A DNA stretch of 24,272 bases from a virus. Under the pieces are notes generated by a model. The model saw only the letters and a list, made by a program, of their open reading frames with translations, searched no databases and had not been told where the DNA came from. A program made the position numbers and the translations under genes. The DNA lies in the UHGV virus genome UHGV-0102815; one strand, given 5' to 3'. Of the stretch, positions 3,460-24,206 are shown piece by piece. Position 1 is the stretch's first letter, and every line of letters starts with the position of its first letter.

Positions 3460-3906
3460 TCACCCCGCCAACCATTGCAGAATCATGTCGCGGGTCATTG
3501 CCTCAACATCATCATTTACGCCCAGAAGGCGACGCTCTGCGTAACGGACCTCCGGTCCTTTGCGGCTGACGCGATCACGCAGGCCATAATGGTGGACGCG
3601 GGCAATGCGCTGCACCTTACCTTCAAACTGCACGCTGGCAGAGTCCTCGCTGGCGGCGGTTTTCAGGTATTTTGTGGTGCGAAGTTTTGTAAACATCTGC
3701 CGTTTGATACGGCCTTTTTTACTGCGTGCTGTTACTCGCCTCGGTTCATAGCTGCTGCCATCAGGATTGCGTTGCATCCTGATGTTCTGCTGCTGTGTCC
3801 GGCGCAGTTCCTGCGCCAGCTGGCGCATCATGCGGCTTCTGGCGGCTGGTTCCAGATTCGCCAGCAAGGCACTCAGCCAGTCGTCCACTTTCTGCAGTTC
3901 AGCCAC
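3460..3906 (-). CDS. S: Tail completion protein gpS
   Basis: 148-aa ORF in the gpS position between R and V; size matches P2 gpS. Confidence 0.8.
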   Translation of the reverse strand: MAELQKVDDWLSALLANLEPAARSRMMRQLAQELRRTQQQNIRMQRNPDGSSYEPRRVTARSKKGRIKRQMFTKLRTTKYLKTAASEDSASVQFEGKVQRIARVHHYGLRDRVSRKGPEVRYAERRLLGVNDDVEAMTRDMILQWLAG

Positions 3907-13336: not shown

Positions 13337-14443
13337 CTATAGTATCAGCTTCGTAAGCGTTTCGAAATCATCACGAGAGATACATTTACTAAGTATAGCA
13401 AAATTCACTGGTGAACCAGAGCTTCCACCAAGGTACCGTCTTAGCGTTCCTGGTATAGTAAGTTCTACATTGTCCGCTAACTGTAGTAAAGGATTTGTTC
13501 GCTCAACCCTGATGCCTATCCTATAAAGTCCGATATTGCCTACGGCTTTAATACCTTCTTGATTGAAGATATCTTGTCTCAAATCTTTAGTGGAGTCAGT
13601 TTTCCTTTCCTTATGTGTTGTCCCTTCAGGGGTAAGGAATGAAAGCTCAAAAACTTTATAATTAAGAGTTGAGTATGGTTTTTGATCTTGCTTAAAGATT
13701 GGTTCAATCAAGGGAAAGAAATCTCTTTCTTTTGATGCAAACTCAGCACCTATAATATTATAAAGTTCTCTTACTACAGTACTCTTTGCAAACAAGACGC
13801 TCTCACCTATTGTATTAATACCTGCATCTATCAAAATAGAGATAGTAGAGTTGGTCTTATTAAAAATGCACACATCAAAACATTGATGCTTTTCTTTTTT
13901 AGTAGCAATGATCTCTTCGTAGCCACTGTACTGCGGTAAACTTTTAGGCGAAATCCGCTCTCTAATTTTTTGCTCTCTAACGGAACTAAATAGAGCTAAA
14001 GCCTGATTATTGCTCTCAGAATAATGAACTAAGTTTATTTTATTCTTCCCCGACGCATTAATTTCCTGCTCAGAAAGGATTACATCTGAGGCGACAGAAG
14101 GCTGTTCAGATAAATCCCACTTTAATTTCATAGCCTTTGTTAGCGAGGAAATTATTTGGTTGTCTACTGATAAACAAAAAAAAGCTTTATCACCGTAGAC
14201 CAATTGACCAAATATTAAATTATTTACAGACCTTATGATATCATTAAATTTATTTAAATTCTTTTCCTTTAATTCTGTTAATTCTTCCAGTATTTTTCCA
14301 TGAGTAGCATCTCTACCTTTACCACGAGCTAATCCAAGAGCTGAAATAACAGGTTTTGCCACGTTCCATGGAAATCTCGTGATTAGTGTCAAAATGGATT
14401 TCATTTCTGCTTCACTAAGTACTACTGGGACATTTCCTGTCAT
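13337..14443 (-). CDS. Cargo operon gene 1: hypothetical protein, about 368 aa, with a possible trypsin-like serine-protease signature near the C-terminus
   Basis: Start placed at ATG 14443 (MTGNVPVV...); the track's longer ORF begins at GTG 14470 with no RBS; motif LGGSSGSPV resembles the GxSGxPV catalytic-serine signature of S1 peptidases. Confidence 0.7.
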   Translation of the reverse strand: MTGNVPVVLSEAEMKSILTLITRFPWNVAKPVISALGLARGKGRDATHGKILEELTELKEKNLNKFNDIIRSVNNLIFGQLVYGDKAFFCLSVDNQIISSLTKAMKLKWDLSEQPSVASDVILSEQEINASGKNKINLVHYSESNNQALALFSSVREQKIRERISPKSLPQYSGYEEIIATKKEKHQCFDVCIFNKTNSTISILIDAGINTIGESVLFAKSTVVRELYNIIGAEFASKERDFFPLIEPIFKQDQKPYSTLNYKVFELSFLTPEGTTHKERKTDSTKDLRQDIFNQEGIKAVGNIGLYRIGIRVERTNPLLQLADNVELTIPGTLRRYLGGSSGSPVNFAILSKCISRDDFETLTKLIL

Positions 14444-14586
14444 CTTAATTACCTGTTGAAATTGCAACACAAGGTCGTCTTCGGGAGATCAATGGGAGTA
14501 TTCCAATAACTTACCCAGGTATAGGAGTGCTTTCAAGTCTAAGACTATCTTCTGTCTAACAGCGCATGTTTTCATCTAAGCGCGCG

Positions 14587-14809: not shown

Positions 14810-15043
14810 TTAATGCAGCCAGCTGTCGTCTTCCCACACCTTCTGCATAATTTTCATCACTTGTTTTCTTTCTTCGTCCAGTTGCAGTCCGGTTAGTTCC
14901 ACACCGTTAGAGCTACCTTTGCGAATGCGAATTACCGTTTTGGGATACAGGGGGCGCAGATTGCGGTAAAGCTCGGATTCAAGGGCGTCCAGGGTAGACT
15001 GGCTAATCTTCTGCTCTTTATCGATCATTATTTCAATGCGCAT
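14810..15043 (-). CDS. DinI-family protein (Tum-like antirepressor domain), SOS-induced
   Basis: Translation from MRIEIMIDKEQ...ALESELYRNLRPLYP...QKVWEDDSWLH resembles DinI and the C-terminal part of 186 Tum; strong GAGGTGA RBS 5 nt upstream of ATG 15043. Confidence 0.8.
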   Translation of the reverse strand: MRIEIMIDKEQKISQSTLDALESELYRNLRPLYPKTVIRIRKGSSNGVELTGLQLDEERKQVMKIMQKVWEDDSWLH

Positions 15044-15053
15044 AAAAGTCACC

Positions 15054-15242
15054 TCAGCTGATGACATCCATTGAGCGGTTGTATTCGTGGGTTCTGATTT
15101 TTGCCATGAGTTCATCAGTCAATTCAGAAACCCACTGCAGAGCCAGCCCCTTCTCTTCATCACTACACTCACTAGCCGCTACAAGCTTAAGAAAAAAATC
15201 AATGCGCTGGAGCTTCAAAGACTCCAAAAAATAGTCCTGCAT
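15054..15242 (-). CDS. Small protein (62 aa), first gene of the LexA-controlled operon; possible N-terminal Tum-like partner
   Basis: ATG 15242 preceded by GGAGG with a 4-nt spacer; stop lies 10 nt before the DinI-like start; the two products together approximate 186 Tum in length. Confidence 0.55.
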   Translation of the reverse strand: MQDYFLESLKLQRIDFFLKLVAASECSDEEKGLALQWVSELTDELMAKIRTHEYNRSMDVIS

Positions 15243-15285
15243 CTTTCCTCCTATGACACCACACGCAATACTGTATGTATAACCA

Positions 15286-15301
15286 CTGTTTATATTTACA
15301 G
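15286..15301. promoter_or_regulatory. Consensus LexA box (CTGT-N8-ACAG) overlapping the -10 of the SOS operon promoter, with a second degenerate box adjacent at 15271-15286
   Basis: ctgtttatatttacag is a perfect CTGT-N8-ACAG; the minus-strand -10 TATACT (15305..15300) overlaps it; ctgtatgtataaccac lies next to it. Confidence 0.7.
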
Positions 15302-15396
15302 TATATAATAATCTTACTGATGTAAAACGTTTTTTTTACGTTCATCAGCCTGATATGCCTGGTATTATTAAGAGCACGAATTGTTAACCCGCGTAA

Positions 15397-19952: not shown

Positions 19953-20471
19953 TCACAGCAAACCGAATGAAGCACCGAGGCCAGTCACGGTATCAACTGC
20001 ACTCGCCATCGCAGGATTAGCCTGTAAACGGGCCTGCAATGAAACAGCAGCCAACGCCATCAGTCGTGTTACAGAGTTAATGCTGCTGATCGCATCACGA
20101 CGACCTGTGCTGGTTTTCACATCACCAGATACCGCACCAGCAGCAACACGCCCAATCTCTGCGGTTGCACTCATGACGTAATGCGGCAGTTTCTCTTTTG
20201 CTACCTCATTAATCGGTACGCATGGCAGGCAGTGAATCTGAGCCAGAAAACCATCTACCAGCGTTGAATCTTCAGTCAGATCGGTAAGCAGCCAGATTTC
20301 TGGTGCGGTTAATAAATGAGGTTGAGCAGGGTTCAACTTGTTTCGCAGAATCTGCACATTCATTCCTGCACGTCCTGCCAGCTGCACCAGGTTGTGGCGC
20401 AGTGCGAATGCACGACAGGCTTCATCAAAATGTGGATGTTTGGAAACTTGGTAATCAAACATGGTTTTCAA
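19953..20471 (-). CDS. cII: CII-like transcriptional activator (186 CII / CP76 family)
   Basis: Translation [25 protein letters not shown]...[43 protein letters not shown] matches 186 CII as I recall it; start may be the second Met (20462). Confidence 0.8.
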
Positions 20472-20526: not shown

Positions 20527-20730
20527 TTAAGCAGACAAAGCATCAACAGTCAGAGCAGCCAGGTTAATCATTACCTTTTCACGTTTTTTGTCTTTACGAA
20601 GACGATGACGAGGTAGTCGGCCATCAGCCAACATATCGTTAATCGTATCAATAGAAAGGCCAGTCAGTTCGCTATAACGTTCGATTGTGACATGTGGTGT
20701 ATTCAGAGTAATTGAAATGTTAGGTGTCAT
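20527..20730 (-). CDS. apl: Apl/Cox-like small HTH protein (excisionase / switch repressor)
   Basis: 67-aa protein with helix-turn-helix ([19 protein letters not shown]), first gene of the transcript divergent from cI. Confidence 0.7.
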
Positions 20731-20819
20731 AAGGCAACATTCCTTCTAGATATGGCTTGTGGCGAGCCGTTGTTTGTCGTGATTAGTAGTGAAGGCTCCA
20801 AAAGAAGACTTCTGGTTCA

Positions 20820-20848
20820 ACTTTAAGATCGCTTTTGGAATCTGTCAA
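20820..20848 (-). promoter_or_regulatory. Candidate lytic promoter pR (-35 TTGACA, 17-bp spacer, -10 TAAAGT) directed toward apl
   Basis: Minus strand reads TTGACA-gattccaaaagcgatct-TAAAGT; flanked by imperfect repeats of TTTTGGA(A/T)T that could be operator sites. Confidence 0.4.
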
Positions 20849-20875
20849 CGAATTTTGGATTTCTTTGGAGGATTT

Positions 20876-21445
20876 GTGGATTTCAATAGCGGCGGTAAGA
20901 AAGCCATAGAACGTTTGGTTGAAGCATACGGGTTCGGTACCCGTCAGGCTCTCTGTGATCATTTAGGTGTTTCTAAGAGCACCATGGCAACGCGTTATAT
21001 GCGTGATATTTTTCCGGCAGATTGGGTAATCCAGTGCGCCCTTGAAACGGGTACCTCGCTTAATTGGCTAACAACAGGGCATGGTTCAAAGCAAGCATCA
21101 GCAAATACAAATACTATAGAAGTAGTAAAATATTTATTGTCTGATGGAGCATTGCAGGAAGACGGTTTTTATATTTTTGATAAGGGATTTCTACCCTCTA
21201 CGTTTAAAAAACCTTTTGTCATCACAGATAACAATTCTGAATTTATTTGTGATAAAGAATTTGATGATATACGTGATGGTAAATGGGTAATAAGTATTGA
21301 TGGCGAAATAACAATCCGCGACATCACTCGTTTACCCGGTGGAAGAATTTTCGTTGAAGGTGGAAACAGAGCCTTCGAGTGCAAGATAGAAGATGTTGAA
21401 ATAATTGGAAAAATTATAAGCTTAACAGTTAAGTATGTTAGATAA
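20876..21445 (+). CDS. cI: CI-like immunity repressor (186 CI type)
   Basis: Start placed at GTG 20876 after GGAGGA; translation ...EAYGFGTRQALCDHLGVSKSTMATRYMR...CALETGTSLNWLTTGHG... and C-terminal ...WVISIDGEITIRDITRLPGGRIFVEGG... resemble 186 CI. Confidence 0.8.
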   Translation: MDFNSGGKKAIERLVEAYGFGTRQALCDHLGVSKSTMATRYMRDIFPADWVIQCALETGTSLNWLTTGHGSKQASANTNTIEVVKYLLSDGALQEDGFYIFDKGFLPSTFKKPFVITDNNSEFICDKEFDDIRDGKWVISIDGEITIRDITRLPGGRIFVEGGNRAFECKIEDVEIIGKIISLTVKYVR

Positions 21446-21656: not shown

Positions 21657-22988
21657 ATGAGCACAGATATAACTTTCGATATACGTGATGAATATAAAAG
21701 AAAAGCCATTGCAGAAAAAATAATAAGTTTGCTAGAGTCTAATATTCCTGTTTCACCTATGGTCATAGATGGGGACTGGGGGACTGGAAAAACAGAGTTT
21801 TCAAAAAAGTTAGCATCCTTAATTGAAATAAACTCGACCAATCATAAAGTAATTTATATAGATGCTTTTACTGAAGATCACAACGATGCTCCCATACTTA
21901 CAATAATGGCCGCAATTGCAGCTCTATATAATAGCGATGAAAAAAAGGAATTAATATCTAAGGCATTGCCAGCCCTCAGATTCGGACTTAAGACTGTACT
22001 CAAAGCTGGTGCTGGTTGGGTATTAAAACAAAATGCGGATGAAATTAATAAGGAATTTGAAGAGGTTATCAAAGACGCTGCAAATTCAGCTATCGATGGA
22101 ACCATCGAGGCTCTGTTAGAAGATCATATCGAGGCACAAAAGAACGTTCTTGCTCTAAAAGAAGTACTAACCAAATTAGCTGGAGAAAGTAAACTAACAA
22201 TAATTATAGATGAGTTAGACAGATGTAAGCCTAGTTTTGCCATTTCTATTATTGAAAATATAAAACATGTTTTTGATATAAAAAACATTAACTTTTTATT
22301 AATTGCAAACACAACTCAACTAAAAGCATCCATAAATCATATCTATGGCTCTTCTGTAGACTCCAACCGTTATCTTGACAAATTTATAAAATTTACATAC
22401 AGCCTTCCTGTTACCTTTAAGGAAGATAATTATAATGATACTTTAACTTCCAAAAATCATTGGATGATGCTATGTGAGCAATCTGAAAGGCTGACCGCTG
22501 CAGTAGAAGCCAGCGAAGATATTTTCTTACAGTTCATTGAAAGTAGAAAATTATCATTACGTGAGGTTGAAACACTTGCTAGATATGTTGAAATATACCA
22601 ACTACTATCAGGCGACAAAATTAGCAACAAATATATTTATGGATATTGTTATTACAGGACTCTAGCGATAATAATCTACACTTTTAACCGAGAGTTAGCT
22701 CTCAACTTTCTTGAAGATAAAGTTGATGCTCAATCAATCATGAAATTGTTTGGTTTATCTAAATTTTCATATCAAACAAGTGAATATAATGTAGATAATT
22801 ATGAATATGCTATATTTGGAATAGTTTACAAATACTTATCTGAAAACTCATCTCTTTTACCTGCTGAGGAAAATATAAAAAGACAATGGGCAGAAATGAG
22901 TGAATACCATTTTTTAAAAGGTGGTGGCGGTATTGGTGAACCAACAAATATTGTGAAAGATGCTTTAAAAGTTTTTTTACTTCAGTGA
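21657..22988 (+). CDS. KAP-family P-loop NTPase
   Basis: Walker A GDWGTGKT and Walker B IIIDELDRC separated by a long insert, typical of KAP NTPases; AT-rich; inserted between cI and int. Confidence 0.8.
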   Translation: MSTDITFDIRDEYKRKAIAEKIISLLESNIPVSPMVIDGDWGTGKTEFSKKLASLIEINSTNHKVIYIDAFTEDHNDAPILTIMAAIAALYNSDEKKELISKALPALRFGLKTVLKAGAGWVLKQNADEINKEFEEVIKDAANSAIDGTIEALLEDHIEAQKNVLALKEVLTKLAGESKLTIIIDELDRCKPSFAISIIENIKHVFDIKNINFLLIANTTQLKASINHIYGSSVDSNRYLDKFIKFTYSLPVTFKEDNYNDTLTSKNHWMMLCEQSERLTAAVEASEDIFLQFIESRKLSLREVETLARYVEIYQLLSGDKISNKYIYGYCYYRTLAIIIYTFNRELALNFLEDKVDAQSIMKLFGLSKFSYQTSEYNVDNYEYAIFGIVYKYLSENSSLLPAEENIKRQWAEMSEYHFLKGGGGIGEPTNIVKDALKVFLLQ

Positions 22989-23067
22989 TATGTATGGCTA
23001 TACAAATTCATACATTGACACTGGTTATACATACAGTAAAAATGCTCTCCACTGGAGGGCATTTTTT

Positions 23068-24120
23068 ATGGCAGTACGAAAACTCACCACAGGAAAATGG
23101 CTTTGCGAATGTTACCCCGCCGGACGTAGTGGACGTCGTGTGCGTAAACAATTCGCCACCAAAGGCGAAGCTCTGGCTTTTGAGCGTCACACGATGGAAG
23201 AAACCGAAGCAAAGCCCTGGCTGGGTGAATCAGTGGATCGTCGAACACTGAAAGACGTGGTTGAACTATGGTTCAAACTACATGGTAAATCTCTGACTGC
23301 TGGGCAGCATGTCTATGACAAATTGCTGCTGATGGCTGACGCTCTGGGCAATCCCCTTGCAACCGATCTCACATCTAAAATGTTTGCCCATTATCGAGAT
23401 AAACGACTGACAGGTGAGATCTACTTCAGCGAGAAATGGAAGAAAGGAGCCAGCCCGGTCACCATTAACCTGGAGCAAAGCTATCTAAGTAGTGTTTTTA
23501 GCGAACTATCCCGTCTGGGCGAATGGTCGTATCCGAACCCACTGGAGAACATGCGAAAATTCACCATCGCAGAAAAAGAGATGGCATGGCTTACCCATGA
23601 GCAGATTGTTGAATTACTGGCTGATTGCAAACGTCAGGACCCAATTCTGGCACTGGTAGTTAAGATATGCTTAAGCACAGGCGCACGCTGGCGAGAAGCC
23701 GTAAATCTTACTCGTTCACAGGTGACCAAATACCGAATTACCTTTGTCAGAACGAAGGGGAAGAAAAACAGAAGCATCCCTATCAGTAAAGAGCTTTACG
23801 AAGAGATCATGGCGCTTGATGGGTTCAATTTCTTCACAGACTGCTATTTTCAATTTTTATCCGTGATGGAAAAAACGTCTATCGTGCTCCCTCGCGGTCA
23901 ACTGACACACGTTCTGCGCCATACGTTTGCGGCGCACTTCATGATGTCGGGTGGAAACATCCTGGCCTTACAAAAAATTCTCGGACACCACGATATAAAA
24001 ATGACTATGCGTTACGCACATCTGGCACCGGATCATCTGGAAACGGCGCTCCGTTTCAATCCTCTGGCAACATTGCCAAGTGGCGACAAAGTGGCGGCAG
24101 CGGTTGGCATTACCCCGTAA
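23068..24120 (+). CDS. int: Tyrosine integrase (P2/186 Int family)
   Basis: Translation from MAVRKLTTGKW...GRSGRRVRKQFATKGEALAFE resembles the P2 Int N-terminus; C-terminus has ARW, HVLRHTFAAHFM and MRYAHL (R-H-R-Y catalytic residues); start at ATG 23068 after GGAGGG. Confidence 0.93.
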   Translation: MAVRKLTTGKWLCECYPAGRSGRRVRKQFATKGEALAFERHTMEETEAKPWLGESVDRRTLKDVVELWFKLHGKSLTAGQHVYDKLLLMADALGNPLATDLTSKMFAHYRDKRLTGEIYFSEKWKKGASPVTINLEQSYLSSVFSELSRLGEWSYPNPLENMRKFTIAEKEMAWLTHEQIVELLADCKRQDPILALVVKICLSTGARWREAVNLTRSQVTKYRITFVRTKGKKNRSIPISKELYEEIMALDGFNFFTDCYFQFLSVMEKTSIVLPRGQLTHVLRHTFAAHFMMSGGNILALQKILGHHDIKMTMRYAHLAPDHLETALRFNPLATLPSGDKVAAAVGITP

Positions 24121-24141: not shown

Positions 24142-24175
24142 CTAACTTATTGTTTTTAATCTAACTTATTGTTTT
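24142..24175. repeat. Two direct repeats of ctaacttattgtttt spaced 19 bp apart downstream of int; possible arm-type sites in the attachment region
   Basis: Identical 15-mers at 24142-24156 and 24161-24175. Confidence 0.4.
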
Positions 24176-24180
24176 CATTA

Positions 24181-24206
24181 ACCCGTTTACATAAATGGGT
24201 TTTTTG
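24181..24206 (+). terminator. Candidate rho-independent terminator after int
   Basis: Hairpin acccgttta-ca-taaatgggt followed by tttttt. Confidence 0.45.

Follow-up and report, generated by a model that had tools for sequence, protein, structure and literature searches.

A predicted LexA-repressed, probably CII-activated promoter in front of the integrase gene of 186-like prophages

The cI-int region and its cargo

The window, by which we mean the whole stretch of 24,272 nucleotides analysed here (UHGV virus genome UHGV-0102815), is a 186-like (Peduoviridae) prophage integrated beside rcdA in E. coli. It carries cII (19953-20462; 68% identity to 186 CII) and an apl/cox-like gene (20527-20730) on the minus strand, and cI (20789-21445; identified by Pfam) on the plus strand. 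On the plus strand as well, int (23068-24120) encodes a tyrosine integrase of 350 aa, and its start at 23068 is common to the annotated relatives. According to the textbook description of P2 and 186, int is co-transcribed with the immunity repressor. In the window, a cargo gene for a KAP-family P-loop NTPase (21657-22988, plus strand; Pfam KAP_NTPase, 4.7e-53) lies between cI and int, and it matches the PADLOC candidate defence system PDC-S20 (6.9e-171). The gap between the KAP gene and int is 79 bp long and is wholly occupied by a predicted control module of int, which we name P_int; the KAP stop codon is located 1 nt ahead of the left half-site of the CII-type operator with which this module begins.

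In relatives, the site between cI and int is occupied by a PD-Lambda-1-like protein or by unknown proteins (e.g., L002, 1804-3480). Among close relatives, the cI-int gap has at least 30 different lengths, and this variety marks a defence hotspot. Homology of the window to the Klebsiella phages 4LV2017 and KP12 and to E. coli phage 813R9 extends from a few bases past the KAP stop codon into int, and the content between cI and int differs among these three phages, being a 349-aa protein or a PD-Lambda-1-like ATPase. Unrelated cargo ORFs share the end CTTCAGTGA just before the left CII half-site (22980-22988 in the window; also in loci with a 395-nt gap, e.g., L006). This shared sequence may descend from the end of an ancestral ORF, and it may indicate the boundary of cargo exchange.

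The left CII half-site contains an ATG in frame with int, resulting in a spurious 376-aa int ORF (22990-24120); automated annotation could in this way take the wrong start for int and hide the promoter. At the other end of the gene, just 3' of int, the direct repeat CTAACTTATTGTTTT (24142-24156 and 24161-24175) lies ahead of a terminator-like hairpin (24180-24201), and the two copies are candidate arm-type Int sites of attP/attR.

A LexA-type box in the spacer of a predicted int promoter

The -35 hexamer TTGACA (23015-23020, plus strand) is a perfect consensus, and its place is conserved in relatives. It is followed after a 17-nt spacer by the -10-like hexamer AAAAAT (23038-23043, plus strand), which bears out the sequence-only reading, in which TTGACA with an A-rich -10-like hexamer at 17-bp spacing had been noted just upstream of int. 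Two independent inferences agree on a predicted transcription start at ~23050-23051, i.e., 7 nt past the -10 hexamer and also 38 nt past the centre of the right CII half-site. The match to the promoter consensus alone is not significant (10 promoter-like hits vs 10.1 expected), and the weight of the evidence therefore comes from conservation.

The spacer of this predicted promoter, conserved as TTGACA-17-AAAAAT, is filled by a predicted LexA operator, the 20-mer CACTGGTTATACATACAGTA (23019-23038). Gammaproteobacterial LexA operators are defined by a 16-bp palindromic core of the form CTG-N10-CAG (consensus TACTGTATATATATACAGTA), and the core in the spacer, CTGGTTATACATACAG (23021-23036), is a perfect CTG-N10-CAG and only one mismatch away from CTGT-N8-ACAG, as previously proposed. 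With a weight matrix built from 26 E. coli LexA operators known from the literature, the int box scores 23.7 bits, compared to a median of 19.9 bits for the training sites and a maximum of 19.2 bits among 200 shuffled versions of the window. The matrix was controlled on the 186 genome, in which the annotated LexA site of p95 (29044-29063) ranks first with 27.0 bits. The sequence-only reading had suggested scoring the int site together with the tum site of the same prophage; done with this matrix, the comparison gives 23.7 bits for the int box vs 23.8-23.9 bits for the strong tum-like box (15284-15303). A weak LexA-like site elsewhere in the window (TTCTGTTAATTCTTCCAGTA, 14273-14292; 14.4-14.7 bits), within an unannotated 377-aa ORF (13337-14470, minus strand), scores above most shuffles but under typical operators and is probably due to chance.

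The tum-like SOS operon has a promoter on the minus strand with two adjoining LexA boxes (15269-15303), a strong one (15284-15303) and a weak CAC-variant (15269-15288), together with a -10 hexamer TACTGT (15298-15303) and a -35 hexamer TTTACA (15321-15326). This layout equals that of 186 p95, in which the LexA box begins at the -10. The cores of the two tum-like boxes overlap by one base (weak, 15271-15286; strong, 15286-15301), and 186 p95 has a single annotated box; overlapping double LexA boxes are known from colicin promoters. The first ORF behind the tum-like promoter encodes 62 aa (15054-15242, minus strand), and the second is DinI-like (14810-15115, minus strand). For the 62-aa ORF, no similarity was detected to 186 Tum or to any NCBIfam model, and the "tum" function in the window may be split or different.

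The sequence-only reading had also pointed to a 17-mer that the int spacer shares with the tum promoter. This 17-mer, TGGTTATACATACAGTA, indeed occurs twice, at 23022-23038 (plus strand) and in the weak tum box on the minus strand, where its position had been given as 15271-15287 and is corrected here by 2 nt to 15269-15285. Two operators drawn independently from the matrix have at least 17 contiguous bases in common with p ~6e-4; thus, the identity goes beyond what the LexA motif alone explains. In 813R9 and 4LV2017, the longest run common to the int box and the weak tum box is 6 nt, and 13-16 of 20 positions are identical. The 17-mer identity is specific to the lineage of the window and probably the outcome of shared descent or of a local exchange. 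Apart from LexA binding, no function is evident for it, and it adds only that both sites are LexA operators.

For comparison, we fetched 77 species-level loci and 80 viral contigs with relatives of Int and scanned the 150 nt 5' of int. A strong LexA box, at -47 to -54 relative to the int ATG, is present in 122 loci, which are the window, ESSI2_ev040, 40 GTDB species loci spanning ~19 genera of Enterobacterales, and 80 near-identical viral contigs, all of which are box-positive. Across the box-positive loci, Int identity goes down to 54%. Their 66 distinct upstream sequences contain 32 different 16-mer boxes, in which CTG is kept in 65/66 and CAG in 66/66 sequences while the interior varies. 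The place of the -35 is taken by TTGAC(A/C), TTGATT or TTTACA in these 66 sequences, and TAAATT, TAAAAT or AAAAAT is kept 1-2 nt past the CAG. The box is absent from 17/17 loci in which the cI stop codon is located 1-10 nt from int, as in phage 186. Consistently, when whole genomes were scanned, the window, 4LV2017, 813R9 and ESSI2_ev040 each had exactly two strong LexA loci (tum-like and int), and 186, YenM_201.16, RCIP0057 and Kp4885-2, in which int is coupled to the preceding gene, had only the tum-like site. This comparative evidence strongly supports the earlier proposal that int would have its own LexA-controlled promoter, tying Int synthesis to the SOS response.

One part of that proposal is not supported, namely, that the coupling to SOS would go back to the separation of int from cI by the insert. 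The cI-int gap in box-positive loci ranges from 78 to 3286 nt. ESSI2_ev040 has the 78-nt gap and no cargo and nevertheless has the box; the box is also found behind many unrelated cargos; and in box-positive Rahnella, Pantoea, Acerihabitans and others, int follows the tail genes U and D rather than cI. Because the module precedes int without an insert, behind unrelated cargos and after tail genes, it is best understood as an older autonomous feature of this int lineage, and it more likely allows cargo insertion than results from it. The same observations bear on the idea that the box is a non-functional by-product, for instance, a piece of the tum promoter left by recombination upon cargo insertion, with int being expressed by read-through from pL/pE as in 186. 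We find this hardly credible. The 32 box sequences in ~19 genera all retain CTG-N10-CAG, and its distances to the -35, the -10 and the ATG are fixed; the box is present without any cargo; the int and tum boxes of relatives share 6-nt runs only; and a terminator-like hairpin is located between cargo and int. In favour of such an origin are the 17-mer identity with the weak tum box beyond the motif alone (p ~6e-4) and the lack of significance of the single match to the promoter consensus.

In the sequences compared, the module appears to be confined to Enterobacterales. Vibrio K139-like phages, which have a known cI-int hotspot, were considered as carriers and rejected because glo overlaps int in VPUSM8. 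Vibrio phage vB_ValM-yong1 was likewise rejected; its TACTG-N7-CAGTA palindrome has the wrong spacing for LexA. This palindrome (TACTGCTTATAACAGTA, CTG-N7-CAG; L169, ~3629-3645) has LexA-like arms and is located in a 128-nt gap between cargo and int.

A CII-type inverted repeat and a hairpin over the int leader

P_int contains two elements in addition to those recognized in the sequence-only reading, namely, a CII-type operator directly upstream and a hairpin that is expected to block read-through. The predicted operator is the inverted repeat ATGTATG-N12-CATACAT (22990-23015, plus strand), identified by pattern match and by the geometry of pE. Its right half-site abuts the -35 with a 1-nt overlap, and the conserved stretch 5' of the -35 (ACATTGAC) is the right half of this repeat. 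If transcription starts at the predicted +1 at 23050, then the centres of the half-sites at 22993 and 23012 would be located at ~-57 and -38. The half-sites of 186 CII are located at -38/-58 of pE, where CII contacts the sigma and alpha subunits of RNA polymerase (PMC6593788).

Several observations point to CII as the protein that would bind this repeat. First, in 186 pE, ATGTTTG-N13-CAAACAT lies exactly at the GenBank feature "CII; activate pE", and the distance from the right half-site to the -10-like hexamer is 21 nt in 186 pE and in P_int alike. Second, the pattern ATGTWTG-N11-14-CAWACAT has exactly two matches in the window (0.00 expected), one at P_int and one at its own pE (20436-20462), where the canonical operator ATGTTTG-N13-CAAACAT overlaps the start codon of cII. 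Thus, the window has a cognate cII with a canonical operator at its own pE; this is established for the window, and the flanks fetched for Rahnella-type loci stop short of the switch region. Third, the repeat, with ≤2 mismatches, abuts the -35 in 118/122 box-positive loci vs 0/31 box-negative loci. One further copy, at pE, is present in almost every locus that reaches the switch region, and in complete phage genomes perfect copies are found at pE and P_int only. In ESSI2_ev040, the canonical ATGTTTG-N13-CAAACAT is present at both promoters.

P_int also differs from pE. The half-sites in the window deviate from the canonical sequence, having the central A of ATGTATG rather than ATGTTTG and being 19 rather than 20 bp apart from centre to centre; a 1-bp change in spacing reportedly lowers the affinity of 186 CII (Shearwin and Egan, in 2000). 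Moreover, the pE-type combination of a weak -35 with negligible basal activity in the absence of CII does not apply to P_int, in which the -35 is the consensus TTGACA. Therefore, P_int would not be a plain pE-type promoter; it may resemble one in the way it is activated, but it should also fire without CII once LexA is gone, and the need for an activator is not obvious. CII-stimulated transcription might also be blocked by LexA in the spacer, which would leave the supply of Int at infection unexplained. The consensus -35 and the deviating half-sites fit an alternative in which P_int responds to LexA only, in which the repeat is a relic or the site of another protein (CI, Apl, IHF or Int), and in which Int for integration is made from a leaky P_int or by partial read-through; the presence of a similar inverted repeat near ogr in Rahnella-type loci fits it as well. 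We nevertheless consider this alternative rather unlikely. The repeat matches the experimentally defined CII operator and not the 186 CI site (ATTCAC-N5-GTGAAT, from the FR feature), its geometry equals that of pE, its distribution follows that of the box (118/122 vs 0/31 loci), and some relatives, such as ESSI2_ev040, have the perfect canonical operator at P_int.

The ogr-side repeat of the Rahnella-type loci lies 5' of an ogr-like gene. In L034, this second CII-like repeat, ATGTATG-N13-CATACAA (3575-3601), is located ~30 nt 5' of an ORF for an ogr/B-like zinc-finger late activator (3629-3862); it is also present in L029-L038 and L080, at a distance of ~425-1320 nt on the 5' side of int. The late activator might thereby be under CII control or be opposed by a CII-dependent antisense transcript. 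We also considered whether the inverted repeat at P_int serves a leftward promoter; this was rejected since no correctly spaced -35/-10 is present and the sequence in question is unconserved between cargos.

The second additional element is a predicted RNA hairpin at 23038-23066 on the plus strand (arms at 23038-23050 and 23054-23066; dG -19.2 kcal/mol, z = -5.5). The Shine-Dalgarno sequence of int, GGAGGG (23054-23059), is part of the 3' arm, and a run of six T (23062-23067) directly precedes the ATG, giving the hairpin a terminator-like shape. The window thus has the GC-rich stem-loop and U-run by which intrinsic terminators are defined; a simple scan had not listed this hairpin, and an Rfam scan of 22700-23400 returned no known RNA family. 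In 62 or 63 of the 66 distinct leaders, the RNA folds at -5 to -19 kcal/mol, and it is weak in three or four (weakest in L028, L047 and, arguably, L039); the Shine-Dalgarno sequence is paired in 63/66. The stems of different lineages are of at least eight unrelated sequences, and L131 has a compensatory double change (GCCCTC/GAGGGC to GTCCTC/GAGGAC). Strand asymmetry, a test of selection at the RNA level, is marginal, with the plus strand being more stable in 29/47 sequences that are not independent of each other (p = 0.04). Altogether, the sequence elements of P_int, their significance, their co-conservation and their covariation are observed over ~19 genera.

The position of the hairpin relative to the promoter suggests how it could act. 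The 5' arm starts anywhere from a few nt inside the -10 hexamer to 4 nt past it. Because this arm is always near the -10, the predicted +1 is located 0-3 nt before the last base of the arm in 64/66 leaders, and a transcript from the predicted +1 would be nearly unfolded (~0 to -3.5 kcal/mol). With the 5' arm underlying the -10/start region, only read-through transcripts from cI or cargo would form the hairpin, and the transcripts of P_int itself would escape it.

In the window and in the E. coli and Klebsiella types, the stem is followed by 5-7 T, and the A-tract before it together with the T-tract after it has the shape of a bidirectional terminator. Accordingly, the hairpin could be a mere intrinsic terminator of the cI-cargo operon that has been packed into the promoter, with no role in translation and no promoter-specific escape, either because P_int starts further upstream or because its transcripts carry the hairpin; that the start site is a predicted one also leaves room for this explanation. 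We judge it to be distinctly unlikely. The versions in Rahnella, Yersinia, Serratia, Kluyvera and ESSI2_ev040 lack the U-run but keep the stem that pairs with the Shine-Dalgarno sequence, the predicted +1 precedes the end of the 5' arm by 0-3 nt in 64/66 leaders, and a promoter whose own transcripts had a terminator directly before the ATG would be futile.

Proposed control of int and comparison with known systems

We regard it as fairly probable that int has an autonomous promoter, P_int, which LexA represses and CII probably activates, and which is shielded against read-through from cI and cargo. We propose that in the undamaged lysogen cI and the defence cargo would be transcribed, read-through into int would be blocked, and LexA would keep P_int off. 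Upon DNA damage, RecA-stimulated cleavage of LexA would open P_int and the tum-like operon in parallel; the tum-like operon would inactivate CI, and pR would open and provide the excisionase Apl. Because P_int and the tum-like operon would both be under LexA control, Int and Apl would be made at the same time. After infection, P_int would also be boosted by CII expressed from pR, as pE is, giving Int for integration. Throughout, transcripts reading through from upstream would be terminated, by means of the U-run here, or would be untranslatable, the ribosome-binding site being hidden in those versions that have no U-run.

In a more far-reaching version of this model, to which we give about an even chance, P_int is a two-input promoter, with CII as the activator at infection and LexA as the repressor that responds to damage, combined with a hairpin that cancels read-through. 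int with P_int would then be a portable, self-contained cassette, and the uncoupling of int from cI would let the cI-int junction host defence genes that are expressed in the lysogen and would let int relocate. In this two-input reading, the design has gone unnoticed because the model phages P2 and 186 do not have it. The promoter together with the 5' end of int is found in 1138/5426 complete E. coli genomes (~21%), including ATCC 8739; E. coli NC101 is another carrier of the module.

If this model is correct, a large and common branch of the family would regulate int differently from the textbook scheme, with int being silent in the lysogen, switched on by SOS for excision and probably switched on by CII for integration. 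The model would also provide a mechanistic reason why defence genes accumulate between cI and int without upsetting the control of recombination, and P_int would be a natural, compact promoter at which an activator from the phage and a repressor from the host come together. It also has a bearing on the frequency of excision and spread of these prophages, with their defence cargo, under SOS-inducing antibiotics. In the literature on P2/186-like phages, we found no description of a LexA- or CII-controlled int promoter: the LexA sites in the Phollow paper and the Serratia phage paper are of the tum type or unrelated; studies of defence hotspots name a cI-int or int-primase hotspot and have nothing on LexA, SOS or the regulation of int; and the module is not mentioned in a phylogenetic study of P2-like switches and integrases. 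P_int would thus bring together known operator types in a new combination, on a gene that is not known to be regulated in this way in this phage family.

Several known systems come close to P_int. As predicted for P_int, the 186 promoter p95 (tum), of which the window has the homologue, has a LexA operator that overlaps the core promoter, and the host signal is RecA-stimulated cleavage of LexA. However, p95 controls an antirepressor/DinI-like operon rather than int, its operator covers the -10/start region rather than the spacer, and it has neither a CII operator nor a hairpin that sequesters a Shine-Dalgarno sequence. In 186 itself, int lacks a LexA site, since cI and int abut at 22433. The predicted CII operator of P_int resembles that of 186 pE in its inverted 7-bp half-sites two helical turns apart, and 21 nt lie between the right half-site and the -10-like hexamer in both promoters. 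By contrast, pE has a poor -35 with negligible basal activity where P_int has TTGACA, drives cI, with int being co-transcribed, and has no LexA operator. CII-stimulated transcription of int for integration, as proposed here for P_int, is also the role of lambda pI; however, the activator and its site in lambda are unrelated to those of P_int. Lambda has no LexA control of int, its Int for excision comes from pL, and it has sib retroregulation.

The suggested function of the hairpin is reminiscent of IS10/Tn10, in which Davis, Simons and Kleckner reportedly described in 1985 a "fold-back inhibition" of transposase translation. In IS10, the ribosome-binding site is masked by a hairpin of which transcripts from outside carry both arms; the transcript of the element itself begins within the hairpin and can be translated. 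The two systems differ in that IS10 acts on a transposase and in that the hairpin of P_int also looks like an intrinsic terminator, and for P_int the mechanism is one that we infer from the position of the arms.

The integron promoter PintI, which is repressed by LexA, has a LexA box in the promoter for the tyrosine recombinase of a mobile element, and this box is conserved across many hosts (PMC3108266). PintI differs from P_int in serving an integron cassette recombinase of an unrelated protein lineage, without a phage activator site and without insulation from read-through. In the prophage KplE1, intS is transcribed from its own, tightly regulated promoter rather than together with the repressor (PMC2951348), as proposed here for int; in that case, control is by IntS and TorI, whereas P_int would respond to LexA and CII.
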